Positions 46,001 through 64,000 are shown, counted from the first letter of the stretch. The stretch is 64,000 nucleotides of DNA from Octopus vulgaris (GCA_951406725.2 OX597814.1:5642001-5706000), one strand, 5' to 3'. Numbers and translations: made by a program. Notes: generated by a model not told the origin, from the letters alone.

Positions 46001-49000
46001 AATGCCAAAGCACTCTGTCATTACTTCTGTGAGGCCCAACATTTGAAAGGTTGGCACGTGTGCCAGTTATGTGACACCAGCATCAACCACGACCATGATT
46101 TCACTTGGCTTCACAGGTCCTCTCAAGCACAGGACATTGCCAAAGGTCTTGATCACTAGTCAATACCTCTGTGAGGCCCAAAGTTTGAAGATCATGCTTC
46201 ACAACGTCGTCCCGTGTCTACCTCTACCACAGGTTCCCTCCACAGTTAGAAATCAGCACTTATTTACACAGCTGTCCTTGTCCAAACGCATCACATGACC
46301 ATACCAGTGCAGGCTTCTCTCTTGCACCACCACATCTGATGCCTCTTACACCCAGCTTTTCTCTAAAGATGTTTACACTCTGTTGAACATGCACATGGAC
46401 ATTGCACAGCCAATGAAGCATACAAGCTTCATTTCTTTCAACACTATGCATATCCTCAGCTGTAACAGTCCATGTTTCACTGCCATGTAGCATAGCCATT
46501 CACACACAATCTGCCTTTCACACACACACATGTATACACAAAACTTAAAGAATGGTATAGATAAGATCTGGGCTACAAGCGGAATATCAGAAGTGGTAAA
46601 TCTCCAAGCGAGGTGTATACTGCAGGCTACTCATCAGGCTGAGGGTATCTTGATTAAATAAATGTTTACATTGTAATAAGGAGGTACACGTTAACACATG
46701 GAAGACTCAGTCAGAATGAATAGAGAGCACAGAAGGAGAGGAGAACATAAATGGGGAGAGAAAGAAGAAGAAAAGAAAAAAAACATGTGAAGTGAGAGGA
46801 ATGAGGAATATAAATAAGGTCATTTGTCCAGTAGTATTCAATAAAGCTGCTAAGGTGGTATTTCATCTGTCTGTACGTCCTGAGTTCAAATTCCGCCGAG
46901 GTCGACTTTGCCTTTCATCCTTTCGGGGTCAATTAAATAAGTATCAGTTATGCACAGGGGTCGATATAATCGACTTAATCCATTTGTCTGTCCTTGTTTG
47001 TCCTCTCTGTGTTTAGCCCCTTGTGGGTAGTAAAGAAATAGGTATTTCGTCTGTTTTTACATTCTGAGTTCAAACTCCAGTGAGGTCGACTTTGCATTTC
47101 ATCCTTCCGGGGTCAATAAATTAAGTACCAGTTGTGTACTGGGGTCGATCTAATTGATTGGCCCCCTTCCACAAAAAATTTGGGCCTTGTGTCTAGAGTA
47201 GAAAAGATTATTCAATAGGGCTGCTTTGGTCGAATTGCAGAAGGGGAGAGGTATTAGAAAGGTAATGTGCGGGGAAGAGGGTGGGGAAATGTTTTTAGTG
47301 AAGAGGGAGACAAAAGTATGAAGAAAGCAAGAGAGAATGGAGAAGAATCATGGCGGCTACCACATGTGTCCAATTGGTGAATGTATATTGTGTGCTGGGA
47401 GCATGTTTACAGTATGAAGTAGGGGAGGTGTCTGTTGGCGGCTGTACCTGTAAGGTTATGAGCAGGAGTGGGGCGGCAGGTGAGATAATAGGAAAAAATG
47501 TTTAAATGGTATGGGAAAAATACAGAGAGAAGCAAGTAAATGGTAACATGGAATTAAAGGGAAGACATATTGCCGGTTTAATAATATGGCAGTAGTGAGG
47601 GGGGGCATAAGAGGGAAAATTTATGAAGGCTGGGGGGGGATGCGGAGTGTGGTTGTTGTGTTTAGAAAATGGATTTGGTGATCAAGTTTCTCAAATAAGA
47701 GACGTAGATTGGTTTGTTGGGGTAGGATGTGTGAAAAGTTTTCTTGTTAGGTGTGGGTGGAGCACACAGATCTGGGGCTAGGGGATAGCAGTGAGACAGG
47801 GCCAGGAGGACAGGACTGGGGAGTGGGAGGTAAGCCTAGTGCATGAAGGAGGAGATGTGAGGAAGAGATGTAGTTTGGTTTGTTGTGGTAGGGCATGCGA
47901 GAAGTTTTCTTGTTAGGTGTGGGTGGATCACACAGATCTGGGGCTAGGCGATAGCAGTGAGACAGGGCCAGGAGGACAGGATTGGGGAGTGGGAGGTAAG
48001 CCTAGTGCATGAAGGAGGAGATGTGAGGAAGAGATGTAGTTTGGTTTGTTGTGGTAGGGCATGCGAGAAGTTTTCTTGTTAGGTGTGGGTGGATCACACA
48101 GATCTGGGGCTAGGGGATAGCAGTGAGACAGGGCCAGGAGGACAGTATTGGGGAGTGGGAGGTAAGCCTAGTGCATGAAGGAGGAGATGTGAGGAAGAGA
48201 TGTAGTTTGGTTTGTTGTGGTAGGGCATGCGAGAAGTTTTCTTGTTAGGTGTGGGTGGATCACACAGATCTGGGGCTAGGGGATAGCAGTGAGACAGGGC
48301 CAGGAGAACAGGATTGGGGAGTGGGAGGTAAGCCTAGTGCATGAAGGAGGAGATGTGAGGAAGAGATGTAGTTGGGTTTGTTGTGGTAGGGCATGCGAGA
48401 AGTTTTCTTGTTAGGTGTGGGTGGAGCACACATATCTGGGGCTAGGGGATAGCAGTGAGACAGGGCCAGGAGGACAGGACTGGAGAGTGGGAGGTAAGCC
48501 TAGTGCATGAAGGAGGAGATGTGAGGAAGAGATGTAGTTGGGTTTGTTGTGGTAGGGCGTGCGAGAAGTTTTCGTGTTAAGTGTGGGTGGAGCACACAGA
48601 TCAGGAGCTAGGGGATAGCAGTGAGACAGGGCCAGGAGGACAGTATTGGGGAGTGGGAGGTAAGCCTAGTGCATGAAGGAGGAGATGTGAGGAAGAGATG
48701 TAGTTTGGTTTGTTGTGGTAGGGCATGCGAGAAGTTTCCGTGTTAAGTGTGGGTGGAGCACACAGATCTGGGGCTAGGGAATAGCAGTGAGACAGGGCCA
48801 GGAGGACAGGACTGGGGAGTGGGAGGTAAGCCTAGTGCATGAAGGAGGAGATGTGAGGAAGAGATGTAGTTAGGTTTGTTGTGGTAGGGCGTGCGAGAAG
48901 TTTTCTTGTTAAGTGTGGGTGGAGCACACAGATCTGGGGCTAGGGGATAGCAGTGAGACAGGGCCAGGAGGACAGGACTGGGGAGTGGGAGGTAAGCCTA

Positions 49001-52000
49001 GTGCATGAAGGAGGAGATGTGAGGAAGAGATGTAGTTGGGTTTGTTGTGGTAGGGCGTGCGAGAAGTTTTCTTGTTAAGTGTGGGTGGAGCACACAGATC
49101 TGGGGCTAGGGGATAGCAGTGAGACAGGGCCAGGAGGACAGGACCGGAGAGTGGGAGGTAAGCCTAGTGCATGAAGGAGGAGATGTGAGGAAGAGATGTA
49201 GTTAGGTTTGTCGTGGTAGGGCGTGCGAGAAGTTTTGGTGTTAAGTGTGGGTGGAGCACACAGATCTGGGGCTAGGGGATAGCAGTGAGACAGGGCCAGG
49301 AGGACAGGATTGGGGAGTGGGAGGTAAGCCTAGAGCATGAAGGAGGAGATGTGAGGAAGAGATGTAGTTTGGTTTGTTGTGGTAAGGCGTGCGAGAAGTT
49401 TTCGTGTTAAATGTGGGTGGAGAACACAGATCTGGGGCTAGGGGATAGCAGTGAGACAGGGCCAGGAGGACAGGACTGGAGAGTGGGAGGTAAGCCTAGT
49501 GCATGAAGGAGGAGATGTGAGGAAGAGATGTAGTTTGGTTTGTGGTGGTAGGGCGTGCGAGAAGTTTTCGTGTTAAGTGTGGGTGGAGCACACAGATCAG
49601 GGGCTAGGGGATAGCAGTGAGACAGGGCCAGGAGGACAGGACTGGGGAGTGGGAGGTAAGCCTAGTGCATGAAGGAGGAGATGTGAGGAAGAGATGTAGT
49701 TTGGTTTGTTGTGGTAGGGCGTGCGAGAAGTTTTCGTGTTAAGTGTGGGTGGAGCACACAGATCAGGGGCTAGGGGATCGCAGTGAGACAGGGCCAGGAG
49801 GACAGGACTGGGGAGTGGGAGGTAAGCCTAGTGCATGAAGGAGGAGATGTGAGGAAGAGATGTAGTTGGGTTTGTTGTGGTAGGGCGTGCGAGAAGTTTT
49901 CTTGTTAAGTGTGGGTGGAGCACACAGATCAGGAGCTAGGGGATAGCAGTGAGACAGGGCCAGGAGGACAGTATTGGGGAGTGGGAGGTAAGCCTAGTGC
50001 ATGAAGGAGGAGATGTGAGGAAGAGATGTAGTTTGGTTTGTTGGGGTAGGGCATGCGAGAAGTTTTCTTGTTAGGTGTGGGTGGAGAACACAGATCTGGG
50101 GCTAGGGGATAGCAGTGAGACAGGGCCAGGAGGACAGGACTGGGGAGTGGGAGGTAAGCCTAGTGCATGAAGGAGGAGATGTGAGGAAGAGATGTAGTTT
50201 GGTTTGTTGTGGTAGGGCGTGCGAGAAGTTTTCTTGTTAGGTGTGGGTGGAGCACACAGATCTGGGGCTAGGGGATAGCAGTGAGACAGGGCCAGGTGGA
50301 CAGGATTGGGGAGTGGGAGGTAAGCCTAGTGCATGAAGGAGGAGATGTGAGGAAGAGATGTAGTTTGGTTTGTTGTGGTAGGGCATGCGAGAAGTTTTCT
50401 TGTTAGGTGTGGGTGGAGCACACAGATCAGGGGCTAGGGGATAGCAGTGAGACAGGGCCAGGAGGACAGGACTGGGGAGTGGGAGGTAAGCCTAGAGCAT
50501 GAAGGAGGAGATGTGAGGAAGAGATGTAGTTTGGTTTGTTGTGGTAGGGCGTGCGAGAAGTTTTCGTGTTAAGTGTGGGTGGAGAACACAGATCAGGGGC
50601 TAGGGAATAGCAGTGAGACAGGGCCAGGAGGACAGGATTGGGGAGTGGGAGGTAAGCCTAGTGCATGAAGGAGGAGATGTGAGGAAGAGATGTAGTTTGG
50701 TTTGTTGTGGTAGGGCGTGCGAGAAGTTTTCTTGTTAGGTGTGGGTGGAGCACACAGATCTGGGGCTAGGGGATAGCAGTGAGACAGGGCCAGGTGGACA
50801 GGATTGGGGAGTGGGAGGTAAGCCTAGTGCATGAAGGAGGAGATGTGAGGAAGAGATGTAGTTTGGTTTGTTGTGGTAGGGCGTGCGAGAAGTTTCCGTG
50901 TTAAGTGTGGGTGGAGCACACAACACTTCCAGAATTCAGTTTTTACTGATGTGGCTGGGTCTTCTCAAGAACTTCATATCGCCAGACATCTTGGTAAATT
51001 GTCATTTCCTCCACGAGGCCCATCTTCCTGAGATCGGTCCTCACTATTTCATCCTGCATCTTCCTCGGTCTTCCTCTTCATCAGGTACCATCCACTTTCA
51101 GTGATCTGCACATCTTTATTCCAGCTGTCCTCATTCATACGCATCACATCTCCAAACCAATGTAGTCTCCTCTCTTGCAAGCTACACTTTATTCCTCTTA
51201 TGCCCAACTTTTCTCTCAATACATTTGCACTTTGCCGTACATGAACTTATGAATAGAAGCGGTGTCAGTCAGAAGCAAACATCTGTTTGCTGTTCTCACT
51301 GAAGATACTGAAGAAATTTTGGGCCATATACCTCCTTAATATAAGAGTACGAACCCTTGGCATCATTTCTGTCAGCTGCTTCTTGTGCCCCTTTTGCTCT
51401 ATCATTCTACCATTCCTGTTTAATTTTCTTTGGAGCAGTCTTCACTTTCCCTTTCAGCTTTCTGTAAGCTTTGAGTTGGGGTTCAATGACTGAGAAAGAA
51501 GTGTATTGCCTAAGTTTTTTTTTCTAAAAGTAGATCATGAATTTCTGCTGATCTGAGAACCAGTCACTGGACATATGTGATTTAAATCCCACTGACAAAC
51601 TTTTGTTTTGAAATCTTCCCATAGATTGTTTGGGCCAAGATTGATACTTTCTATAGCATTACTCTTTTACTCTTTTACTTGTTTCAGTCATTCGACTGCG
51701 GCCATGCTGGAGCACCGCCTTTAGTCGAGCAAATCGACCCCGGGACTTATTCTTTGTAAGCCCAGTACTTATTCTATCGGTCTCTTTTGCCGAAGTGACG
51801 GGAACGTAAACACACCAGAATCGGTTGTCAAGCAATGCTAGGGGAACAAACACAAACACACATACATACACATATATACGACAGGCTTCTTTCAGTTTCC
51901 GTCTACCAAATCCACTCACAAGGCATTGGTCAGCCCGGGGCTATAGCAGAAGACACTTGCTCAAGATGCCACGCAGTGGGACTGAACCCGGAACCATGTA

Positions 52001-52308: not shown

Positions 52309-52844
52309 CTTTATATATAAAAGAGAGGTTGTGTGCTGTCTGTCTCCTACGATTTAGATTCCTAACTACTCCCACATTTTGCGGTGCAGTTTAACCAAAA
52401 CCGGGTATCTTATAGTCGTGATTCATATCGAGCCCTTCTGGGTATTAGCGCGCGTCTACAATGAGTCTACGATTTAAAAAAAAAATTACCATAATTTTTC
52501 ATCATTTTTAATGCATTTTCGCTCAGTTTATATAAGGGAAGTAACTCTCTATAAATGCTTATATAGTTATTTCCCTTACAAACCCGAGCAACGCCAGGCA
52601 ATACTGCTAGTATAAAATAAAACAGGAAACTGGAAATTTTTTGTTTCCATTTCAAACAATCCAACCCAAACCAGCATGGAAAACAGACATTAAACAACGA
52701 TGATGATGATGATGATGATGGGTAAAAGTTTTATTGTTTTATTTCTGTAAATTTTCACAAGTATTATTTTTGAAACTTTAAATCCAAAAAAGAAAATTTT
52801 ATATAAATGTGATTAAAAAATAAATAAATACCTCTCTTTTCCAT
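16500..52844 (-). CDS. PARP14/PARP15-like: Macrodomain-containing mono-ADP-ribosyltransferase (PARP14/PARP15-like); 13 coding exons, ~651 aa, macro-macro-linker-PARP catalytic domain
   Basis: Hand-spliced exons 52832-52844, 45024-45160, 44515-44742, 42330-42557, 37299-37350, 32041-32180, 31532-31759, 30481-30708, 27603-27657, 26287-26352, 22199-22332, 21633-21810 and 16500-16768. All are GT-AG and phase-compatible and sum to 1956 nt with no internal stop. Macro motifs VDVIVNS and SLAFP.LG.G; ART motifs IERIQN, LWHGT, GFNRSYCGKNAT.FGEGVYFA and IYVIFHDSQAYPNYLITF. Confidence 0.9.
17230..18035 (+). mobile_element. RTE LINE RT fragment, degraded
   Basis: GVHQGSVL...LLYAD; GRLYDVCILTAILHGNEMWAL. 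Confidence 0.85.
18301..20270 (-). mobile_element. Young 5'-truncated RTE-clade LINE with uninterrupted 464-aa RT ORF (18846-20240), VNTR-containing 3' UTR and (GAT)n tail
   Basis: QFGFVPGKSTTDAIF, FVDMEKAFDRV, GVHQGSVLSPLLF, YADD, FRYLG and GRPRKTW motifs; (TA)n on both sides. Confidence 0.95.
20381..20620 (+). repeat. Inverted near-identical copy of 19548-19787 (RTE internal segment)
   Basis: 240 bp with one mismatch seen; bounded by (TA)n. Confidence 0.92.
21633..21810 (-). CDS. Macro-PARP exon (ART domain, HGT motif)
   Basis: ttttctacag / gtaagt. Encodes IERIQNKTLYHGYQVLKRKFEAENPNITNEVDGLWHGTAEGAVRGINKSGFNRSYCGKN; 178 nt, phase 0-1. Confidence 0.95.
22199..22332 (-). CDS. Macro-PARP exon (start of ART domain)
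   Basis: ggcctctag / gtttgt. Encodes (E)SVPVTWSPMGDEELFKIVPVTNGPEYDDIQATFRQNLPSYRIIK; 134 nt, phase 1-0. The P..W..M and EY..I...F pattern matches PARP14/15. Confidence 0.9.
22600..23530 (-). mobile_element. Degraded RTE LINE with 3' UTR pieces
   Basis: GGCMESVIARIRIGWRKFR and VQERRVYWFGDVMQM. Confidence 0.8.
23560..24815 (-). mobile_element. Penelope-like element remnant: GIY-YIG endonuclease preceded by an Asn/Thr-rich segment
   Basis: ORF 23813-24190: C..R...CPL...C....VYQCTV...YYIG...SW.II...C.LCL.E, the Cys-flanked GIY-YIG pattern of PLEs. No RT seen. Confidence 0.8.
24858..26172. repeat. 1.3-kb (AAT)n microsatellite with ATT/GAT variants
   Basis: Direct inspection. Confidence 0.98.
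26287..26352 (-). CDS. Macro-PARP basic linker exon (66 nt, symmetric)
   Basis: tttctttcatacaag / gtgagg. Encodes (A)STKSQPGKSQKKKFRHRNVKK; phase 1-1 fits both neighbours. Confidence 0.65.
26870..27070. repeat. 56-bp tandem repeat, about 3.5 units
   Basis: ggcagttccc at 26887, 26943 and 26999, with a variant at 27055. Confidence 0.9.
27603..27657 (-). CDS. Macro-PARP exon (last helix of macrodomain 2)
   Basis: ttacttctaacag / gtaaat. Encodes KFKEYFQEISTDGSTASS; 55 nt, phase 0-1. Positional paralogue of 37299-37350. Confidence 0.8.
28809..30034. mobile_element. Palindromic non-autonomous DNA transposon (GG...CC ends, 8-bp TSD; Merlin- or MULE-like)
   Basis: ggatcttttccttttgaacggc / gccgttcaaaaggaaaagatcc. 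TSD gaaaattt at 28801-28808 and 30035-30042. Inner arms at about 29390-29630 and 29640-29880 carry (ccctaa)n. Confidence 0.88.
28930..29372 (+). mobile_element. CR1/L2-type LINE 3' fragment nested in the palindromic element
   Basis: LRRLAADL..THKII...TRGH...RKHFFTLRVAEAWNKLPASVV. Its 3' UTR recurs inverted at about 28040-28140. Confidence 0.85.
30481..30708 (-). CDS. Macro-PARP exon (macrodomain 2, C-half)
   Basis: tttttttttag / gttggt. Encodes ILANLTQIITICLEKAEELGAKSLAFPTLGGGKLRYP...IKDVYFVVYPQDTEIVT; 228 nt. Confidence 0.93.
31532..31759 (-). CDS. Macro-PARP exon (macrodomain 2, N-half)
   Basis: cttttgtag / gtaagt. Encodes VDVIVNSTNEHLQLDKGSISKFILNAAGPQIQSEC...IAITKGYNLKCKNVFHLALRFWNEDSPDS; 228 nt. 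Confidence 0.93.
32041..32180 (-). CDS. Macro-PARP exon (linker and first strands of macrodomain 2)
   Basis: ttgttttcag / gtgagt. Encodes (D)TSSPNPSFPGPQQKAAPITSTTNVISTENVGGVKINLTIGSITNVS; 140 nt, phase 1-0. Confidence 0.9.
33690..34985 (+). mobile_element. Degraded R4/Dong-like (RLE) non-LTR retrotransposon fragments
   Basis: NITII...MINIAVPADQNV...KADKYQDLVIQV (RLE motif), YKYPG and the RKEGGRG region. Confidence 0.65.
35243..36427 (-). mobile_element. 5'-truncated RTE LINE with 3' UTR
   Basis: RVKGRLYDACVRAAMLHGSETWAV; (CAT)n tail; microsatellites on both sides. Confidence 0.92.
36622..36995. repeat. Near-perfect inverted repeat (about 180-bp arms, 13-nt spacer) resembling an inverted Penelope-type terminal repeat
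   Basis: Arms 36622-36802 and 36816-36995; the right arm runs into (TA)n. Confidence 0.95.
36854..36946 (+). ncRNA. Type I hammerhead ribozyme candidate (mirror copy on the minus strand at about 36670-36763)
   Basis: CTGAAGA at 36863-36869, stem II gaaagacacaat/attgtgcctttt, GAAA at 36925, palindromic stem III acacgtgt, GTA triplet at 36934-36936, weak stem I ttc/gaa plus tatt/aata. Confidence 0.65.
37299..37350 (-). CDS. Macro-PARP exon (last helix of macrodomain 1)
   Basis: ttgttttcacag / gtaaac. Encodes IFTEYLNRQKNEGFHSK; 52 nt, phase 0-1, bridging 42330 and 32180 in frame. Confidence 0.8.
39342..42110 (-). mobile_element. Long degraded RTE LINE with 3' UTR VNTR
   Basis: RT motifs in ORF 41293-41658, with frameshifts. 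131-bp repeats start at 39693, 39824, 39955 and 40086. Confidence 0.92.
42330..42557 (-). CDS. Macro-PARP exon (macrodomain 1, C-half)
   Basis: atttttatag / gttggt. Encodes ILANLTQIITNCLKTAERMGAKSLAFPILGTGKMRYP...IKDVYFVVFPTETKIIK; 228 nt. Confidence 0.93.
42650..43790 (+). mobile_element. Degraded RTE LINE 3' portion inserted in the macrodomain-1 intron
   Basis: RWPCSICRKGVGRNSIRC, YLGDQVSSGGGCSE and a (GAT)n tail. Absent from the paralogous intron 30709-31531. Confidence 0.85.
44515..44742 (-). CDS. Macro-PARP exon (macrodomain 1, N-half)
   Basis: cttttctag / gtaagt. Encodes VDVIVNSSNKQLQLQRGAVSKFILNAAGSEIQSEC...VFHLALRFWNDDSPDS; 228 nt. Confidence 0.93.
45024..45160 (-). CDS. Macro-PARP exon (N-terminal segment and first strands of macrodomain 1)
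   Basis: ttattttcag / gtgagt. Encodes (D)TPSPNPSFPGSLQKLSSMLYRTTVTSRENAGIKIQLLIDSISNAS; 137 nt, phase 1-0. Confidence 0.88.
45390..46510. mobile_element. Tail-to-tail RTE-related fragments (+ 45390-45730, - 45740-46510)
   Basis: Terminal segments in both orientations; AMLHGSETWTVTAEDM. Confidence 0.75.
46855..47207 (+). mobile_element. tRNA-derived SINE with duplicated core (9738 family)
   Basis: gagttcaaattccgccgaggtcgactttgcctttcatcctttcggggtc and a variant repeat. Confidence 0.8.
47690..50921. repeat. 166-bp tandem satellite, about 19.5 units, purine/G-rich on the + strand
   Basis: gtgtgggtgg recurs at 47751, 47917, 48083 and onward. Confidence 0.97.
51660..52043 (-). mobile_element. 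tRNA-derived SINE, second family
   Basis: Head ggcgcaggagtggctgtgtggtaag (A box), ggttcagtccc (B box) and a (taaaagag) tail. Partial copies near 35020-35210, 38530-38880, 61375-61550 and 62035-62215. Confidence 0.85.
52308..52610 (+). mobile_element. Non-autonomous Helitron-like element
   Basis: A/TC 5' end (tctttatatataaaag), imperfect GC hairpin cccgagcaacgccagg, then a CTAG/T 3' end; no TSD. Confidence 0.75.
52832..52844 (-). CDS. Candidate start-codon exon (exon 52832-52866, coding part ATG GAA AAG AGA G)
   Basis: Strong acceptor ttttattttcatttgcag and donor gag/gtattt. The ATG has A at -3 and G at +4; the phase 1 end matches exon 45160 (MEKRDTPSP...). Confidence 0.6.
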
Positions 52845-53489
52845 GATTTCAACATGTATTTTTGCTCTGCAAATGAAAATAAAATAATTAGGAAAAACAT
52901 TGTTAAGGTATTAAATACATCATTTGTTGTCAAAGTAAATTCTCTCTCTCTCTCTCTCTCCCATATAATTACAGTTAAGAGAGAGATCAGAACAACTGGG
53001 CAGAATTCAGACAGGAATCCATCTCCCCCCTTTACCATTCAGATTCCTCAGCCAAATGCAATGCTTGTCTATTCACATTGTTTTGAATCGATGCCATTAT
53101 CTCATAGCTTAAACATTGTGATAACGTGATTATCTTTTTAGCATGACATTGTAGGGTAGGTGTTACAAAGGCTGGATCTTTCCAGTTTAAATATAAAACA
53201 AGTTATATGATTGGGCCAGATTTGGCCAGTCTAAACGCTAAAAGGTTAATTGACCACATTGTGCAAGGTAATAAGGTTTACGTGTGTGTTTTTGAGTCCT
53301 ACTACAGTGCAACACTCCCAAAAAGCACACAAGAATAAACTCATACAGGAAATGCACAATAAAATGAACAAAGCCCAACAACATGTACAAAAGAGGCCCA
53401 GTAACCATCAGAAGAACACAACTACGCTACACACACAACACACAATACAAACACTAATACAAGAAAAGACTTAGTTCAAACCTCATAAC

Positions 53490-54095
53490 AAGCACGCGGA
53501 ATTCTGTTCTTGATTCGACGGTCATTCGGAATGCTCACAGCAGCCATATTCCTACCGCTCTATGTCACGCTGGTGAGACCCATATTGGAGTACGGGATTC
53601 AAGCCTCTTCTCCTTATCTCCTCAAAGACATACAGCATCTCGAAAGAGTCCAGAAGCTGGCTACCCGCATGGTTCTTGGTCTCAAGAATTTGTCTTATGA
53701 AGAAAGGCTGAAGACGCTCGACCTTTATTCTCTAGAAAAACGACGACGCCGTGGAGATCTCATTCTTGCTCACAACATCATAAGCGGAAAGTGTACCCTC
53801 TCGAAAGAGCTGTTCTTCACTCCTGCTCCAGAGCGTCGGCTGCGGGGTCATTCCGAAAAGCTCTATCTGCGACGATTTCATCTCAATCGAAGGAGAGGGG
53901 CTTTCTCCGCCCGGGTTGCGGATCCGTGGAATAAGCTGCCAGACGAGATGGTGAAGATGCCGACGACCGCTCAGTTCAAAGTCTCCCTTGACCTCAAGTG
54001 GCCTGAACTCTTTACATGAACACCACCCTGTACATAACTCCATGCCCCCCTACGTGGCCTTGGTTTTTGCTTTTTGAGCCAAAAAAAATAACTAA
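53490..54095 (+). mobile_element. CR1-type LINE 3' fragment, open 169-aa C-terminus
   Basis: LYVTLVRPILEYG...LERVQKLATRMVLGLKNLSYEERLKTLDLYSLEKRRRRGDLI...WNKLP. Confidence 0.92.
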
Positions 54096-54099
54096 AAGA

Positions 54100-55370
54100 A
54101 AGGGCTATAGAAAAGGGATTTCAACGCTTTGGGTAGAGAAGGGTTTGTTTAAAGTGACTGAGCACACAAGTTAGTTGATCAAGCTAATGTTTATAGAAGA
54201 AAGTGGATGACAGAATTGGAGGTGGAAGGGATCACAAGGGAACTGGAAAAGAAAGACCAGGCAGTGGGAAAGACAAACAACAACATAAGAGATACAGCTC
54301 AAACCAAAGAAGAACCTAAAGAAAAAAATAACAATAGTGCTACCAATAAGGAAGGGACAACTGGCACCAACGACTTAAGTGATTTAAGTGAGGAAGATCA
54401 GAAGATTTTAGATGTGTTGCAGGAATTCATGAGTAAAGAAGTAAGAAAAAGATTGCTCTCTTTAAAGGGTACCAACAGAAGAATGTTGCTAGATATGACT
54501 AAGAAAGTAGATTCTGTTATCAGTAGGATAGATACTAAAATACAGAAGACACTCATTGATCTCTGTCGGAGGAGTAGTAGTTACTAAAAGATTAGATATT
54601 CCACAAGGACAAATTAGAAAAAAGCAAGTGTGAAAAAGGAAATTACAAAATAAGGAGAAGACTTTAAGACAAGATCTGAGTAGAATAGAAACCTGGAAAC
54701 TGAACAAGATAGGAAACACAAGATTCAAATCTTCTCTTGGGAAAAGATACTTAGTCAAAGAGAAAGAAGGATTTGGGACAATAATAAAAGATTTGAAACA
54801 ATGTGTAACAACAATAGCAGGCAAGCTCTCCAGATATCAGAAAACAAACAGATCAGTATCAACAGAATAAATGACTTGAGACAGACCAGAAGAGATTTTA
54901 TAACCAAATAAATAGTGGAGAAGAAAGTACTGAAGATGAGGAACCTAATGCAGAAGAAGCTAGAATGTTTTGGAGTAATATTTGGTGTAAGCCAGACAAT
55001 CAAAAGGAGATGCAGGGTAGTTAAAGAAAACAAAGGAAGAAGTAGCCAGATCTAAGATTAACTAGCGCATTAATGAGTAATGTGTTAGGAAGAATGCTAA
55101 ATTGGAAGGGCCCAGGACCAGAAGGCATCCAATTACCTAATGGCCAGATATAAAAATCATTAAAAGAAGGAGAGAGTTATAAGTATCTTGGAGTATTAGG
55201 ATCTGACAGAGTACTACAGAAATGAAAAGGAAAATTGAGAAGGAGGAGGAAGCTAATGAAGTCAAAACTAAATGGTCGGAATCTAGTGAAGGCTGTAAAT
55301 ACTCGGGCAGTATTTTTACTTAGCAGCTTTTGTGATAAAAAGTGAACTAGCAAAGCTAGACAGAAGAACT
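54100..55370 (+). mobile_element. Degraded R4/Dong-like LINE fragment
   Basis: WMTELEVEGI, NWKGPGP, YKYLGVL, KLNGRNLVKAVNTRAV and LDRRTR segments with stops. Confidence 0.7.
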
Positions 55371-56080
55371 AGGGTCTCCCTCTTCCACAGGTACCATCCA
55401 TTTTTAGTGATCAGCACTTCTTTATGCAGCTGTCCTCATTCATGTACATCACATGTCCAAACCAAAGTAGTCTTCTCTCTTGCATACTACATTTGATATG
55501 CCCAACTTTTCTCTCAACACATTTGCACTTTGCCGTACATGTGCACTGTTGTTGCACATCCAACGGTGCATACCACCTTAATTTCTCTCCAGTCTACACG
55601 TCTTCTGTATTCAGAGCTCATTTCTCACTACCATGGAGTATAGCCATTCGCACACAAGCACCATATAGTCTACTTTTCACTCTGAGAGAGAGGGTCCTTT
55701 TTGTTGCTAACAGAGGTAATAGTTCTCTGAACTTCACCCACCCAATTCTTATTCTAGAAACAATATTTTCAGAGCATCCTCCACCATTGCTAATTTGGTC
55801 ACCTAGGTAACAGAAACTATCTACAACCTCAAGAGAACCTCCTGGGTTTTTGAGAGAATCTAAGTCCCGTGTGCTCTTAGTGCTTATTGTTCCTGCACAT
55901 CTGCCACACACAAAGACAATTTTATCTCTTAATCTACCTGTGATTCCACTGCCCACAGTTTACACTGGATACAGTACAAGGAATTTCTTCCAACTCCTTT
56001 CCTTCTTATGGAGCAGCACCATTTACCTGAAGGAAAGAGAGTTTTATCTTCCTTCTTACTAACAACCACTTTGGTTTTAA
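55370..56080 (-). mobile_element. Degraded RTE LINE fragment
   Basis: LEVVDSFCYLGDQISNGGGCSE...RIRIGWVKFRELLPLL. Confidence 0.85.
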
Positions 56081-57179
56081 TAATAATAATAATAATTCTT
56101 TCATTTATTTGCCACAAGTGTGAAGGATGAGGGGAATAATACAAAGATAGACATAAAGTCCTGGGGTTTACATATAATGGAATTGTAGGGAATACGACCG
56201 TATGTTGAGGTTGGTGACATAGGTAAGTCACACGGTCGCATTCCTAGCAAAATAAGATAAGCCATAAATACAATTTTATACAATGCAGTGCCAACAGAAT
56301 TTAGATGAATTGACGACAAGCCGTTCCACTGTTTGAGGGATAGATATTATTTTATTTACAATGGGTTAATGTTAGAAGGTTGTGAGGGCTAGCAAGCATT
56401 GTGTATGTGTGCGTACAACACGTGTTTGTGTCTGTGTGTTCGTGTGTGTGACAGATACAATAAGGGTGAATGTGTGTGGCATAGTAGGTACAGAGCATAG
56501 AGTTAATAATAGATTTACTGTTCATGAGGTACACGAAGTGTAAGACTTCAATATCAAGATGTTGTGTCTCGGAGCTGAGATTAGTTGAATCACTTGTTGT
56601 GCTTATCTTTCTCTTGATATAGATATTCTTTCAGATATATATACTGCAACTGTTTTTCCGTGGTGAGATTTTCACCTAACAGCATGAGTTGAATCTGTAG
56701 TTATCTTGTGTACAAGTTAAATCTTCGTAGATAGAGACGATGTTGGCGATGACGTTATGTCTGTCGCTTGGTTTACTATAGCGTCTTCATATCATGTTTT
56801 GCTTGGTTATTTTTCTCTTGATATAGATATTCTTTCAGATATATATACTGCAACTGTTTTTCCGTGGTGAGATTTTCACACTAACAGTATGAGTTGAATC
56901 TGTGAAGTTGGTGTGTACATGTCTGAAGTGGACGATGGTGATGGCGACTTGAAGTTGGTACAATGATGGTGACGACGGCGGCGGAGATAGAAATTGGTTT
57001 TCTGTTGCGTCGTCGTGGCTGATCGTCTGTCGTTGTGACTGGAACATGTTGAGTAGCTCTGTGGTCAGAGGTTAGCCCTTATAAGGACTGGAACCAAAGA
57101 CGCAAGTATACTGAAAACACTCCCTTATATACAAGTAAGGTGGCTCAACAGAGCCTAGGAAATGGGACCTTAACCATTA

Positions 57180-57775
57180 GTCATTAAGGATAAAAATGTC
57201 ACTATCCTCTGGGATTTCACTAACAGAATGATCCATGCAAATCAACCAGACATAATTATTAAAGAGAGAGAAGAAAATATTTTAGGACTAATAGATGCAA
57301 GTGTTCCCACTGATAAAAATATATCATCATCATCATCATCATCATTTAACGTCCGTTTTCCATGCTAGCATGGGTTGGAGGGTTCAACTGGGGTCTGGGA
57401 AGCCAGAAGGCTGCACCAGGCCCAGTCTGATCTGGCAGTGTTTCTACAGCTGGATGCCCTTCCTAACGCCAACCACTCCGTGAGTGTAGTGGGTGCTTTT
57501 TACGTGCCACCGGCATAGGTGCCAGGGGAGTCTGGCATCGGTCAAGGAATTTGACAAATTAAGTAAATATAAGGAGCTGTTAATTGAAATAGAAAGGATG
57601 TGGAATCTTAAAACGAGAACTGTTCCTGTTATTGTAGGTGCCCTAGGTATAATAAAAAAAAATGGGATGTCAGAAACATCTAGATAAGATCCCAGAAGAA
57701 CCATGTCTCAGAGAAATCCATAAGATTGTGTTGGCAAGTACTGCTGACATCCTTAGAAAAACCCAATCAATTTAA
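57180..57775 (+). mobile_element. RLE-type LINE endonuclease fragment interrupted by an RTE tail (57323-57540, minus)
   Basis: QPDIIIKE...IDASVPTDKNI [insert] KEFDKLSKYKELLIEIERMWNLKTRTVPVIVGALG. Confidence 0.8.
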
Positions 57776-58055
57776 ATGTCTGTGTTGTATTACATGAGGC
57801 TATTTCACTACTGCCCTTGCCTCTTCCCCTCCTCACGTTTTCAGTTATACTGTAACATCTCATCTCTACTAGAAACAGAGAAACTTCAAAAAAACAAAGA
57901 TCTAGAAAAGAGGTAACTTGAATGTGGAATCTAAAACCAGGAACAATTCCTATCATAATAGGCGCATTAGGTATGATGAAAGAACATTCAGACAAATGCA
58001 TAACACAGAGCTGTGCTGGGGAGTGAAGTGAAAGCATGTGATAAAAATAAAACTA

Positions 58056-58098
<43 letters not shown>

Positions 58099-58654
58099 TT
58101 AATGGTTTCAAATTTTGCCGTAAGGGCAGCCATTTTGGGGAGGGGGAAGGGTCAATTTCATTGACCTCAGTGATGATAATAATAATAATAATTGTTGGCA
58201 CCCTTTTGTCTCGGGAGACAATGGAGTTGCGCATAAACTAATCCAGTCTGGTTTTTACATTTCATGTCCTCTCCAGTTTCCTCTCCAATTTTGCGCAGGC
58301 CTGGGCTAGATGTAAGAAAATCCTGGGTAGCCCAATCGTCAGGATTCCTCTCTCGACCTTGCTGATGTAGTCCAAAGGAATGCAGAGCATTACGTTTGGC
58401 ACCGGCTTGGTTGCAGGAGCTGCCGGAAGAGTGTCAAGTCAAACACTAAACCACCTATGGGGCTCCACTCTGGATTTCTTTGAAAGTTGTCTCCTTTCCG
58501 TAACCCTGGATAGGGGCCCATACTGGGTACTGTCAGCCGGAGCCAGCTGAGCCCCGAGACTCGTGTCAGGCAGGATCGTAACTCCCTGAAGTAGTGGAGA
58601 AAATCGCTACCCACTACCTATAATAATAATAATAACAACAACAACAACAATAAT

Positions 58655-58863
58655 CATTTCTACTAAAGGCACAATGCCTCAAATTTCTAGGGAGGGGAAG
58701 TAGTCGATTATATTGACCCCCAGTGTGTAACTGGTACTTAATTTATCGACCTCCAAAAGGATGAAAGGCAAAGTTGACCTCACCTGAATTTGAACTAAGA
58801 ATGTCACAATGGGTGAAATACCGTTACGCATTCAGCATGCTAACGATTCTGCCAGCTCGCCAC
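58655..58863 (-). mobile_element. tRNA-derived SINE (9738 family)
   Basis: Same head and core, within (AAT)n. Confidence 0.8.
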
Positions 58864-59602
58864 TTTCATAATAATAATAATAATAAGTCACAGGCAGTGG
58901 CTCTCATGGCTTCTGATCTTAACTGATTGGAAGTGTTATCATGTTCATTGTTTTGTCTTGGTATAAAAGATGGGCTAAAGCAAATATTCTGCTCAATACC
59001 ACAGATTTGCTTGTCAGTTGTTGGACCTTAACCAGTTGAGCATGTCCCTTAGTGGCTAACGAAATGTGCATCTCTGATCACGAGCAGAAGTAGTGGGGGA
59101 GCATCATAGCCATGTGTTGAGAAGGATTCTTTGGGGTTTGAATAATTCACCTCTGGAAACATGGGTATTTCGTTCAACGTCCTTAAACAACCCTTATTCA
59201 GGGACCTTTTGAGCAGGATGGGCTACTTGATCTGAAGAAAACTCTAACTGAGCCTCCACCTGCAAGGTCATGCAACGTTTATTTTGATATGAGATCACCA
59301 TGTCGCGCACATGTGGTTGTGATGCATGTGCCTGGTGTACCCTTATCAGACGGGTAGTCATGATGGGTATACTGGGCTTTCTATATTTTACCCCAGTGTC
59401 ACTTTGATGGCATGCACTGCTCTCTCACTGAAGAAGAAGAAGAAGGAAGAGGAGGTGGAGGAGGAGAAGAAGAAGGAAAAGAGGAAGAAGAAGAAGAGGT
59501 GGAAAAGGAAGAAGAAAATAGTGAATAAAAAAACTAATAAATGTGTCAAGTCAAGATCCTTCATGCTTCACATAAAATGTCAAAATGAAAGCAAGAAAAA
59601 CC

Positions 59603-60411
59603 GGTTAATATAGGGCGTTACGTCTATCAGAAAATCAAAACAAAAATGTGTGTAATAGGTGTAAAACAACTTCCTATGAACGAATATGAAAAAAAAAATT
59701 CGCGCACGCGAAAGGGGGGTGGGGGAGAGGCCTCGGAAAATTCACATCGGGAAGTTCCGAAAGCGTCTGAGGAGCTGACCCGGGCACCAAAACAAAAAAA
59801 AAAAATAGTGTAATATGTGTAAAACAACTTTATTTATTTTTTTTTTTTGCGAAATATGTACAAAAATTCCTGTGTGAGTGTGTGTTCTTGATACTCGTTT
59901 AGAACAAGTAGTTTTACACCAATTACACTATTTTTTCTTAGTTTAAAGGCCGTGGACTGAAGATGTGAAATTTCCGAAGCCTCTCCCCCACCCCCCTTTC
60001 GCGTGCGCGCATTTTTTTCATGATAGTCGTTTAGAGCAAGTTGTTTTACACCTATTACGCTGTTTTTGTTTTTGTTTTTGTGCCCGGTTCAGACGCTTTC
60101 GGAAATTCCCGATATAAATTTTCCGAGGCCTCTCCCCCACCCCTCTTTCGCGAGAGCGCATTTTTTTTTCATATTCGTTTAGAGCAAGTTGTTTTACACA
60201 TATTACACTATTTTTTTTTTGTTTTGGTGCCCGGGTCAGCCCCTCAGATGCTTTCGGAACTTCCCGATGTGAATTTTCCGAGGCCTCTCCCCCACCCCCC
60301 TTTCGCGTGCGCGAATTTTTTTTTTCATATTCGTTCATAGGAAGTTGTTTTACACCTATTACACACATTTTTGTTTTGATTTTCTGATAGACGTAACGCC
60401 CTATATTAACC
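59603..60411. mobile_element. Long-TIR MITE (GG...CC ends, 8-bp TSD; Merlin-like)
   Basis: ggttaatatagggcgttacgtc / gacgtaacgccctatattaacc. TSD gaaaaacc at 59595-59602 and 60412-60419. Arms of about 225 bp are built from roughly 120-bp subunits. Confidence 0.9.
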
Positions 60412-60647
60412 GAAAAACCCGTAACAGAAAATTAATCGCAGCCAAAACAGCTGACGTTCTTTTCGAAACGCACCTCTCCAACAAAATGACGCCTAATTTA
60501 TTATTTTTTTAATATGAAAATGGGAAATATATCCAAAATGAATGAAGTATGCAAAAAAATTTTTTAATATTTAAAAATATTTTATACTAAAAAATAAAAG
60601 AAACGGAAATATTCGCGAATATTAAGAAACATGGGGAGGTAACTTAC

Positions 60648-60960
60648 TTTACCAGTCGTTAATGATACGAGGGACGAAATAACCACTGAGTTATATGTTT
60701 TGTCATTTATTTTCTCTGTAAACTGATAACAAAACTTGCATACGACTTAAACATATTTATTTCTGTCGTTTATCAGAACATCATAAAATGGGCGAAAGTA
60801 AAGCGAGTTCACACCACCGAACTAACCTGTTTGCGCAGTAGAAAAATCTGGTTAAAAGCAATCAAGAATTTACAAACGATATTGTCGGTGTGTGGGGTCC
60901 CTCTTGCCGCCCTTTTTTCCGAACCAAAATAAGGGATTTGCTGCATATTAGGAAGTCGGG
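60648..60960 (-). promoter_or_regulatory. Candidate non-coding first exon and promoter of the macro-PARP gene (upper boundary uncertain)
   Basis: Donor aaa/gtaagt at 60648 in CpG-richer, non-repeat-looking sequence upstream of the ATG exon. Splicing to 52866 places an in-frame TAA upstream of the ATG. Confidence 0.4.
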
Positions 60961-61068
60961 GTACCTGATTGCAAGCAAAAAATCGGGTTTTTTTTTATTT
61001 TGTCTTAGTGAAAATCGTGCGGGTATTAATATAGAAATATACCCTTACATACGCACGAACGTTTATAC

Positions 61069-61235
61069 CAGTGGGTTTCAACCAGGGTTCCGCAAGAAGT
61101 TACAAAACTGCTAAAATCAGCAGTAATTTTTAATTCACCTGTGCATAAGACAATTAAATTATTGCACAGGGCTTCCTCGAGCCAGTGGAATGTTTCCTTG
61201 GGGTTCCGCTCCAGCAAAAAGTTTGAAAAGCACTG
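61069..61235. mobile_element. hAT-type MITE with 8-bp TSD
   Basis: cagtgggtttcaa / ttgaaaagcactg. TSD gtttatac at 61061-61068 and 61236-61243. The mirror copy at about 62353-62508 lacks one end. Confidence 0.85.
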
Positions 61236-61552
61236 GTTTATACAGACACATAAATGAAATCACGTAAATACATATACACATACATTATATATACACACAC
61301 AAAAATACATGTACATACGTACACACACATACATACATACAAAAAATGCATGTATATATTCTTGTATTTATTTCATTCATTTAACAGCGCTCATGCTGGA
61401 GCACTGCCTTTAGTCGAAGAAATCGATCCCAGGACTTATTCTTTGTAAGCCTAGTACTTATTCTATCGTCACCTTTGCTGAACCGCTAAGTTACGGGGAT
61501 GTAAACATACCAACAACGGTTGTGAAGCGATGGTGGTGGGGAGACAAACACG

Positions 61553-61607
<55 letters not shown>

Positions 61608-61610
<3 letters not shown>

Positions 61611-62010
61611 TTATTTACATTTGACGGATATTTGTTCCTCATCTTGTTTCTTGTTAACATGCTTCGGCTGATATACCCTCCAACCTTCTTCAGGTGTATC
61701 TGGGGAAATTTCAAACTTGACTTCTCATTCCTAAGGTATTTTTTTATGTTGTTGTTATTATTAAGGTCACTGCCTGAAATCGAACTCGGAATCTTGGGCT
61801 TAGTAGCCCGCGCTCTGAACCACTACGCCCGTGGCATGTGGCGTAGTGGTTCAGAGCGCGGGCTACTAAGCCCAAGATTTCGAGTTCGATTCCAGGCAGT
61901 GACCATAATAATAATAACAATAACTACAATAACAACATAAAAAAATACCTTAGGAATGAGAAGCTAGGTTTGAAATTTCCCCAAGGTTGGAGGGTATATC
62001 AGCCGAAACA
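61608..62010. mobile_element. Head-to-head tRNA-derived element with hammerhead-like tail, inserted in (TA)n
   Basis: A box tggcgtagtgg and B box gagttcgatt(c/t)c on both strands. ctgaaga-ggttgg..tcagcc-gaa on the minus strand at 61655-61697. Confidence 0.7.
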
Positions 62011-62961
62011 TATATATATATATGTGTGTGTGTGTGCGTGTTTGTCTCCCCACCACCATCGCTTCACAACCGTTGTTGGTATGTTTACATCCCCGTAACT
62101 TAGCGGTTCAGCAAAGGTGACGATAGAATAAGTACTAGGCTTACAAAGAATAAGTCCTGGGATCGATTTCTTCGACTAAAGGCAGTGCTCCAGCATGAGC
62201 GCTGTTAAATGAATGAAATAAATACAAGAATATATACATGCATTTTTTGTATGTATGTATGTGTGTGTACGTATGTACATGTATTTTTGTGTGTGTATAT
62301 ATAATGTATGTGTATATGTATTTACGTGATTTCATTTATGTGTCTGTATAAACCAGTGCTTTTCAAACTTTTTGCTGGAGCGGAACCCCAAGGAAACATT
62401 CCAGTGGCTCGAGGAAGCCCTGTGCAATAATTTAATTGTCTTATGCACAGGTGAATTAAAAATTACTGCTGATTTTAGCAGTTTTGTAACTTCTTGCGGA
62501 ACCCCTGGACAGCGATCCGACTTCCTAATATGCAGCAAATCCCTTATTTTGGTTCGGAAAAAAGGGCGGCAAGAGGGACCCCACACACCGACAATATCGT
62601 TTGTAAATTCTTGATTGCTTTTAACCAGATTTTTTTACTGCGCAAACTGGTTAGTTCGGTGGTGTGAACTCGCTTTACTTTCGCCCATTTTATGATGTTC
62701 TGATAAACGACAGAAATAAATATGTTTAAGTCGTATGCAAGTTTTGTTATCAGTTTACAGAGAAAATAAATGACAAAACATATAACTCAGTGGTTATATA
62801 TATATATATATATATACAAACAAACGAAAATATTTTGACAAATTAAACTTAAATGTTGAAGTGAATCGAACGGCTTTTGTGTGTTTCTTAAATGGCTTAT
62901 AAACACCTTCCTCGCTGCAATTGTTTTCGTTTCAGCACACGATCTCAGATCAAATTACTTG

Positions 62962-63400
<439 letters not shown>

Positions 63401-63420
63401 CACATCCATCGGAGCATACT

Positions 63421-64000
63421 GAAGCCAGTATGCTCCGATGGATGTGTAATGTCAGTGTTCATAATCGTCAGAGTGTAAGTTCCTTGAGAGAAAAGCTGAA
63501 CCTAAGAAGCGTCAGTTGTGGCGTGCAAGAGAGACGGCTGCGCTGGTATGGTCATGTGACAAGAAAGGCTGAAGATAGTTGTGTGCAAAAGTGCTACACC
63601 CTAGCAGTGGAGGGAACCTGTGGAAGAGGTAGACCCAGGAAAACCTGGGACGAGGTGGTGAAGCACGACCTTCGAACTTTAGGTCTCACTAAGGAAATGT
63701 CTAGAGACCGAGACCTATGGAAGTATGCTGTGCATGAGAAGACCCGGCAAGACTAGTCAGGCCATAACCCGTGGCCCCGACCTGGGACGTAGTCAGTCCT
63801 GTGCATACCTTCCTTCTTGTGACACTTATGAAGACCTGTTGAGGCAAGTGAAAATCAAATCAAATCAAATTAAAACAAATCAAATAGATGAACATCAGTG
63901 GAATTGTATTCTTTGTGGTACCAGTGCCGGTGGCACACAAGAAAACCACCCAAACATGGCCGTAACCAGTACCGCATCGACTGGCCTCCGTGCTGTGGGC
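63421..64000 (+). mobile_element. 5'-truncated RTE LINE (ORF end 63756) continuing beyond the window
   Basis: EASMLRWMCNVSV...GRPRKTWDEVVKHDLRTLGL...KTRQD*. Confidence 0.92.

Follow-up and report, generated by a model that had tools for sequence, protein, structure and literature searches.

A 2.1-kb palindrome near a PARP14-like gene of Octopus vulgaris, probably a scar of fold-back repair at a TA microsatellite

A 64,000-nucleotide stretch of the Octopus vulgaris genome (GCA_951406725.2 OX597814.1:5642001-5706000), here called the window, carries a PARP14-like gene on the minus strand and was found by self-comparison to contain a palindrome of 2.1 kb at positions 60679-62797. As judged from the sequence, the right arm of this palindrome is a recent inverted copy of the adjoining 0.9 kb on the left, probably made by a break in a TA microsatellite, fold-back synthesis, and joining by microhomology. 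The same comparison identified 3 further near-perfect local inverted copies in the window (20381-20620, 36817-36995, and 63400-63421), all of which end in (TA)n, and this end is the feature common to all 4 events. The class of mechanism is itself known from yeast and flies; what is new is that the proposed fold-back insertions are longer, fixed in the germline, and anchored in microsatellites, with 4 of them in 64 kb. The value of the observation lies in this recurring pattern, the single palindrome being probably a repair scar.

Arms, junctions, and sister events

The outer arms aligned as 2 ungapped pairs, 61085-61579/62010-62504 (495 nt) and 60679-60959/62517-62797 (281 nt), with reported identities of 100% and 99%, and differed by 3 substitutions in 757 bp outside the microsatellite columns (at 60828, 60841, and 61185). 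The inner arms differed at 7 of 142 aligned positions and by 3 indels, which corresponds to a divergence of 5% and is clearly higher than that of the outer arms (Fisher p = 1.7e-4). At the tip, a short loop was flanked by a perfect 40-bp stem. The window was free of Ns, and no further copies of the unique arm DNA were found within it. A first-pass annotation of the same DNA had described a 2.1-kb palindrome with nearly identical outer arms, a gap of about 125 bp on the right, an abrupt right end in (TA)n, and an older, more diverged centre, and each of these features was recovered; the gap is occupied by a 12-nt filler in the right arm, which ends in a TA tract of 22 nt (Table 1).

The same annotation had taken the left arm for the original, which is supported both by the junctions and by a miniature inverted-repeat transposable element (MITE) of hAT type. 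This element has the 8-bp target-site duplication (TSD), GTTTATAC, and the short terminal inverted repeats (TIRs) of its class, and it is complete, with both TSDs, in the left arm only, as had also been claimed. The right arm is the derived copy, because the segment absent from it holds one TSD and the left TIR of the MITE that is intact on the left, so that the right-arm copy is short of one TSD and one TIR. No further copies of the MITE were found within the window.

All 4 derived copies track their template to an AT or TA dinucleotide (2 to 3 nt of microhomology) and then continue as TA tract; in the focal palindrome the shared nucleotides are TAT, at 62795-62797. The microhomology at the distal junctions thus lies within 0 to 5 nt in the focal case and in 3 of the 3 sister events, which share AT/TA. 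The probability of such AT/TA microhomology by chance was estimated at 0.152 per junction and at 5e-4 for all 4. The events at 36.6 and 63.4 kb have plain hairpin tips without any element, and the event at 20.4 kb is a copy of a segment of an RTE retroelement, for which the second-best RTE match of comparable length within the window was 80% identical.

To place these events among other inverted repeats, the window was scanned for inverted pairs of at least 90% identity, at least 20 nt in length, and less than 2.6 kb apart, and the resulting 24 pairs collapsed to 12 loci. At 4 of 10 non-focal loci, an arm ended no more than 4 nt from a TA tract (p = 0.007), a figure that falls to 3 of 10 if a doubtful AT-rich 21-nt pair at 16.8 kb is left out (p = 0.048). 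Of the 5 loci whose arms are at least 98% identical, a set defined by criteria chosen after looking at the data, 4 were TA-ended (p = 2.5e-4), and 3 of 4 (p = 0.002) once the focal locus was removed. Loci that lacked a TA end were TIR elements or oppositely oriented dispersed repeats. A looser test for a local inverted 18-mer at the tract edge was positive at 8 of 68 edges, compared with 5.1% of positions taken at random (3.0% once the focal region was excluded), and was set aside because it was weak and also missed the event at 36.9 kb.

Among the matches listed in our literature search, in which coverage of subscription papers was incomplete and supplements were outside the search, no TA-anchored fold-backs in cephalopods were found. 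The accessible parts of PMC9977147, 10.1101/2020.07.20.188979, PMC10886601, and PMC6962438 likewise contained nothing on flank duplication.

Table 1. Positions of the palindrome, its sister events, and associated features in the 64-kb window
Feature	Position	Strand	Description
Left outer arm	60679-61579		Unique CpG-rich DNA, hAT MITE, short interspersed element (SINE), and CA/TA tail; original template
Segment without counterpart	60960-61084		125 bp without counterpart in right arm; includes left TSD and left TIR of MITE
hAT-type MITE	61069-61235		167 bp; 8-bp TSD at 61061-61068 and 61236-61243; TIRs identical at 11 of 13 positions
SINE-like dispersed repeat	61357-61560	+	79% identical to 51668-51862; its CA/TA tail is the tract holding the central element
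(TA)20 tract	61568-61607		Left half of target
Left inner copy	61608-61829	-	tRNA-like head; AAT/AAC spacer; degenerate minimal hammerhead core of Penelope type near 61693-61660; tail (about 50 nt) that the other copy lacks
Tip loop	61830-61839		10 nt
Right inner copy	61833-62011	+	A-box/B-box head, 14-nt deletion of hammerhead CUGANGA box; stops just past GAAAC box; tailless
Right outer arm	62010-62797		Derived inverted copy; begins in (AT)7, a 14-nt run; stops at TAT microhomology with the next TA tract
Filler	62505-62516	+	12 nt at internal deletion junction of right arm
(TA)11 tract	62795-62816		22 nt, where the derived arm stops; presumed other end of the break
Unique DNA	62817-62982		CpG-undepleted (observed/expected 1.55); likely original continuation of TA tract
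Long TA tract	62983-63400		About 420 nt, irregularly interrupted
Sister event, 63.4 kb	63400-63447		22-bp snap-back hairpin, 4-nt loop, at 5' end of truncated RTE; joined to the 420-nt TA tract by TA microhomology
Sister event, 20.4 kb	20381-20620	+	240-bp inverted copy (1 mismatch) of RTE segment 19548-19787, about 600 bp away (594-bp spacer), between 2 TA tracts; last PARP intron
Sister event, 36.6 kb	36622-36995		Fold-back; arms about 180 bp, differing by 1 substitution and 1 indel; 13-nt loop; right arm ends in (TA)22; PARP intron
PARP14-like gene	16500-52868	-	2 macro domains and PARP domain, 12 coding exons; likely start ATG at 52844
Candidate 3' end of non-coding exon 1	60647-60678	-	GTAAGT donor, putative use; unduplicated

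The central element

The centre of the palindrome consists of 2 head-to-head copies of a tRNA-headed element, set in (TA)n. From the tip outward, each copy comprises a tRNA-like head, an AAT/AAC spacer, and a 3' part, which in the left copy contains a CUGAAGA box, a bulged A, the G10.1-C11.1 stem (6 bp, with wobble pairs), and GAA. A hammerhead descriptor, written post hoc, had its sole match in the 64 kb in the left copy and matched 1 of 200 shuffled windows, and a pattern for the A and B boxes had its sole match in the window at 61839 (+), in the right copy. In the hammerhead core of the left copy, position A15.1 is a G and helix I cannot form. The central head obtained an Rfam tRNA score of 11.2 bits (E = 6.3), which is below the gathering threshold, and ARAGORN found 0 tRNAs. 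Rfam gave no match to a hammerhead family in the hammerhead region, and the monomer RNA fold of this region was not a hammerhead (z = -0.12). An active ribozyme is therefore not claimed, in view of the missing Rfam match, the fold, and the changed core base. No other copies of the central element were found within the window, the RTEs of which were likewise unmatched.

The nearest parallel to such an arrangement is the Schistosoma SM-alpha element, a tRNA-like repeat with a hammerhead. In the centre, moreover, an inverted copy adjoins the 5' end, only one end carries a tail, and the target is a microsatellite, all of which are traits of Penelope-like elements; the tail is about 50 nt in the left copy, whereas 30 to 40 nt have been reported for these elements. 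According to the accessible text of PMC4209133, the minimal hammerheads of Penelope elements have a bulged nucleotide after A9 and the G10.1-C11.1 pair, with motif pairs located 100 to 700 bp apart on opposite strands, and the available part of PMC8557442 describes insertions of Penelope-like elements into (TA)n targets that have an inverted copy at the 5' end and a tail confined to one end. The centre of the palindrome shares with the elements in these accounts the opposite-strand motifs, the inverted copy at the 5' end, the one-ended tail, the microsatellite target, and a putative, degenerate form of the minimal hammerhead core. Unlike these elements, it has a tRNA-like head of the RNA polymerase III (Pol III) type in place of an open reading frame (ORF), and both of its cores are decayed. 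Animal retrozymes, as far as described in the accessible portions of PMC7229834 and 10.64898/2026.07.22.740005, occur in tandem arrays, whereas the copies in the octopus are head-to-head.

Taken at face value, the centre looks like a decayed, non-autonomous, tRNA-headed insertion of Penelope type, and we consider it a candidate for a tRNA-headed SINE mobilised by Penelope. The right copy would end at about the position where a hammerhead ribozyme cuts. No hammerhead SINE in cephalopods was found among the matches listed in the literature, although repeat databases and supplements were outside the search, so the element may already be catalogued.

Proposed fold-back repair and competing explanations

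Starting from the observed arms, their polarity, the difference in age between the inner and outer pairs, and the TA microhomology at the far junction, we infer the following series of steps. A tRNA-headed element with a Penelope-type hammerhead would long ago have been inserted head-to-head in the TA tail of the SINE, leaving an inverted repeat of 170 bp between stretches of TA. The break in the TA tract on the right would be about tenfold more recent, and the exposed strand could then have folded back on the inner repeat, with its (AT)n end paired to the left (TA)20 tract and the 50-nt tail looped out. A polymerase would have copied about 0.8 kb leftwards, skipping 125 bp with the 12-nt filler either during copying or afterwards, until synthesis halted at TAT and the new strand became joined to the (TA)n across the break. 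The scar left behind is most likely neutral or mildly harmful.

Similar events have been studied elsewhere. In yeast, according to the accessible text of PMC11724301, break repair can proceed through resection, priming from an inverted-repeat hairpin, strand displacement, and joining with 0 to 5 nt of homology, and the local foldback insertions at an induced cut are mostly 5 to 34 bp, and up to about 150 bp, in length. The octopus palindrome shares with them an inverted copy of the sequence adjoining the break, in the form of the near-identical right arm, the joining with 0 to 5 nt, and priming by a nearby inverted repeat, for which both the older 170-bp inner repeat and the self-complementary TA would have been available. 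It differs from the cases in the same source in that the octopus copies are 22, about 180, 240, and 788 bp in length, fixed in the reference genome, and anchored in (TA)n. In flies, the available part of PMC9303309 describes snap-back synthesis-dependent microhomology-mediated end joining that yields inverted repeats, with DNA polymerase theta using templates within about 50 bp of the break. The AT/TA primer repeats, the nascent microhomology, and the inverted repeats are common to both systems, whereas the focal copy is 0.8 kb, a length that suggests a more processive polymerase than in the snap-back by polymerase theta. Since its length is beyond the published cases, the octopus event would work like the known fold-back insertions without being of their size. 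TA repeats are in turn described in the accessible text of PMC13645644 as cruciform break sites repaired by microhomology-mediated end joining, with the repeat serving as microhomology. Such fragility, in which TA tracts act both as break sites and as joining microhomology, as proposed here, is known from human cancer or WRN-deficient cells (PMC13645644, PMC13738482, available portions), and the words "foldback" and "fold-back" do not appear in the main texts of these 2 papers.

The first-pass annotation had placed the fold-back at the central element. The junctions support templating by fold-back, but such an element is not generally needed, as the fold-back at 36.6-37.0 kb has a 13-nt loop and no element.

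Several points weigh against fold-back repair as the origin of the right arm. The analysis covered a single assembly window, so that the empty site is a deduction from this one sequence. The copied length of 788 bp is outside the 5 to 150 bp expected of short insertions, and a search of the window for the origin of the 12-nt filler gave only chance-level matches of 6 to 8 nt. The divergence of the inner arms could stem from 2 different RNA templates instead of age, and the TA may have been added or expanded at the junctions instead of marking the site of the break. The event at 20.4 kb has neither a hairpin tip nor homology at its left junction, and may for this reason be templated by RNA or in trans. 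Finally, the recurrence statistics are post hoc and small, with 4 events in a window that was picked for holding one of them.

The main rival is that both inversions are products of retrotransposition, in which case the endonuclease and reverse transcriptase of a Penelope (or RTE) that targets TA would have nicked the tract and copied either their own cDNA plus flank or nascent PARP pre-mRNA. The Penelope-type anatomy of the centre is consistent with this origin (the putative minimal hammerhead, adjacent inverted copy, one-ended tail, and (TA)n target), as are the TA microhomology at the position where cDNA on a minus-strand RNA would be primed, which was seen in 3 of the 4 events, and the involvement of RTE sequence in 2 of the sister events; the window also holds a GIY-YIG-like remnant at 23816-24199, a lead only, with a negative Pfam result. 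We nevertheless regard a retroelement origin as unlikely, because divergence is about 12-fold lower between the outer arms than between the inner ones, the fold-back at 36.6 kb is free of elements, and the right-arm copy has no poly(A) and carries an internal deletion that is not GT-AG. No spliced junction was seen in this copy either, but it spans no known intron boundary. The copied strand moreover holds 13 runs of at least 4 Ts, which are stop signals for Pol III and argue against read-through transduction by this polymerase. Even so, the TA tract might have been cut by a Penelope nuclease. Less probable still is an assembly artefact, in which a chimeric read folded back, or 2 haplotypes were wrongly joined, at the hairpin or a self-complementary TA tract. 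According to the accessible text of 10.1101/2023.05.16.540928, the published O. vulgaris assembly, to which the window presumably belongs in view of the 620 identical protein residues described below, was made from Oxford Nanopore R9.4.1 reads at about 27x and polished with short reads; the 99.6% identity of the arms is compatible with haplotype differences or polishing noise, and the neighbouring 420-nt TA tract looks noisy. An artefact would however have to account for 2 new junctions in the right arm (the deletion with filler and the join to unique DNA), for a divergence of 5% and 3 indels between the inner arms, which is beyond what the fold-back of a read would create, and for the 594-bp spacer of the 20.4-kb event with TA on both sides, in a window without Ns in which the TA tracts at the junctions measure merely 14 and 22 nt.

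Two other explanations are the least likely. According to one of them, the palindrome would be an older twin promoter under selection, with divergent transcription from the PARP14-like promoter and arms kept identical by gene conversion. We consider this very improbable in spite of the CpG-rich unique DNA in the left arm and a GTAAGT donor beside it, both of which are examined below, as the donor and 125 bp of upstream DNA are missing from the right arm, which has nothing but TA and a truncated RTE in front of it and bears the same signatures as copies in introns without promoter features. The other explanation, that the whole 2.1 kb is a DNA transposon of Foldback or MITE type with long TIRs, draws on the presence of true palindromic elements with long TIRs nearby (59602-60412 and 28036-30043), and TA-targeting DNA transposons such as MuTAnT, as well as Foldback and MITE palindromes, reportedly carry long inverted repeats beside TA tracts. 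It is hardly credible here: unlike those elements, the palindrome has arms made of local unique DNA and half of another MITE, no TSD at its ends, and neither a second copy in the window nor a multi-copy family, and its left end adjoins unique sequence, the right end alone adjoining TA.

The PARP14-like gene, double-stranded RNA, and neighbouring repeats

The macro-domain PARP gene named in the first-pass annotation is real: the window encodes all 620 of the 620 residues compared with O. vulgaris CAI9714739.1, distributed over 12 minus-strand exons. A search with a macro-domain exon returned 34 proteins, of which 32 were Octopus PARP14/15-like or hypothetical records and 2 were left out of account, and the gene belongs to a large octopus expansion, with internally duplicated blocks of macro-domain exons. 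The first 33 amino acids of the annotated protein had no 5-residue match on the minus strand of 52869-64000, which points to a start further upstream. However, 3 paralogs with a common ATG exon carry differing N-terminal extensions before that exon, so that the extension of 33 residues may have arisen from faulty prediction, the true first exon being non-coding. Whether or not this is so, the annotation does not place the start of the transcript in the left arm.

The donor of exon 1 proposed in the first-pass annotation exists as a GTAAGT at 60647, the only one on the minus strand of 52870-64000, but it is a putative donor that says little, since only 1 of 11 real donors of the PARP14-like gene is GTAAGT. 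The idea of a duplicated promoter is plausible in so far as CpG-undepleted DNA is located at the 5' edge of a depleted gene body: unique segments within 60413-61069 had observed/expected CpG ratios of 2.1, 1.12, and 1.83 (small counts, 6 to 12 CpG each), compared with 0.33 over 16500-52900 and 0.46 over 52900-59000. In the octopus, methylation is found mainly in gene bodies, with little of it at promoters or repeats, according to the accessible text of PMC9476566. This CpG content fits either a nearby 5' end or plain intergenic DNA, as unmethylated intergenic DNA would likewise retain its CpGs, and a working twin promoter is possible but unsupported. The right arm does face the TA tract and the RTE at 63421, as had been pointed out, but this RTE is merely a 5'-truncated 3' remnant. 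An IRF-like GAAANNGAAA motif at 60600 was dropped, having 17 occurrences in the window.

As the annotated first coding exon lies outside the window, the hairpin may instead be intronic double-stranded RNA (dsRNA). Folding of 61540-62050 gave z = -41, with 0 of 100 shuffles equally good, and 93% of the bases were paired when the palindrome region was folded as RNA. The cruciform suggested in the first-pass annotation would less likely be extruded from the tip, with its 10-nt GC-rich loop, than from the TA tracts. If the transcript starts beyond the window, it would contain a near-perfect intronic RNA duplex of 0.78 kb, an expected target of ADAR editing. The palindrome at 36622-36995 would also form intronic dsRNA within the PARP gene. 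An Rfam scan of 59000-64000 yielded 37 sub-threshold matches, mostly miRNA models on hairpins and TA repeats, which were discarded as similarities of structure only.

The accessible text of PMC5625713 reports for the octopus an exceptional abundance of near-perfect inverted pairs at short range (4.4e-3 of random 50-mers) and of hyper-editing; a similar value in a frog is partly explained there by a palindromic Harbinger, and no source is named for the octopus. With a similar measure, 221 of 6178 tiles were positive in the window without the focal region, 73 of them in 2 TA-anchored fold-backs, 40 in TA tracts, 97 in TIR elements, and 11 in other repeats; the link to octopus dsRNA is only a lead, as this is a single selected window with a value far above the genome-wide figure. 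The 3 similar copies suggest a common source of octopus dsRNA rather than a purpose-built twin promoter. Very tentatively, there could be a genome-wide class of thousands of TA-anchored inverted copies of unique DNA, 20 to 800 bp in length, derived from (TA)n breaks that were possibly made by the Penelope endonuclease which also inserts a tRNA-headed, hammerhead-tailed SINE head-to-head in such tracts, and this class might be a main cause of the dsRNA density and the A-to-I hyper-editing of the octopus. In that case, the PARP14-like gene, which is of immune type, would have received at its 5' end, through the focal scar, either a duplex of 0.78 kb or a second, outward promoter. If near-identical unique inverted copies end at (TA)n throughout the genome, the fragility of TA tracts, so far mainly known from cancer cells, would be at work in shaping the genome of a germline and in supplying ADAR with substrates.

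Other repeats were noted in the window. A long-TIR element at 59602-60412, directly beside the left arm, is CpG-rich and has arms of 229 bp (98%) and internal 155-bp repeats. The nested palindromic element at 28036-30043 has several inverted arm pairs (92% to 98%) and a palindromic core of 490 bp with CCCTAA-like runs, and is not TA-anchored. The 5'-truncated RTE at 18846-20303 (-), a young element from which the 240-bp inverted copy was derived, has an open reverse-transcriptase frame of 485 amino acids (Pfam RVT_1), and its 5' end adjoins a short TA tract, just as the 5' end of the RTE at 63421 adjoins a TA tract. A broken ORF at 23816-24199 (-) resembles a Penelope-type GIY-YIG endonuclease (an Atlas lead with a family share of 40%), had no match in Pfam, and adjoins a 1.3-kb AAT tract at 24858-26175. 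A 166-bp satellite with 19.4 copies of 96% identity, strongly G-skewed, occupies 47697-50922 in a PARP intron. Finally, the ORF list contained degenerate transposase fragments at 1382-2381, which we take to be of mariner type by their motif pattern.

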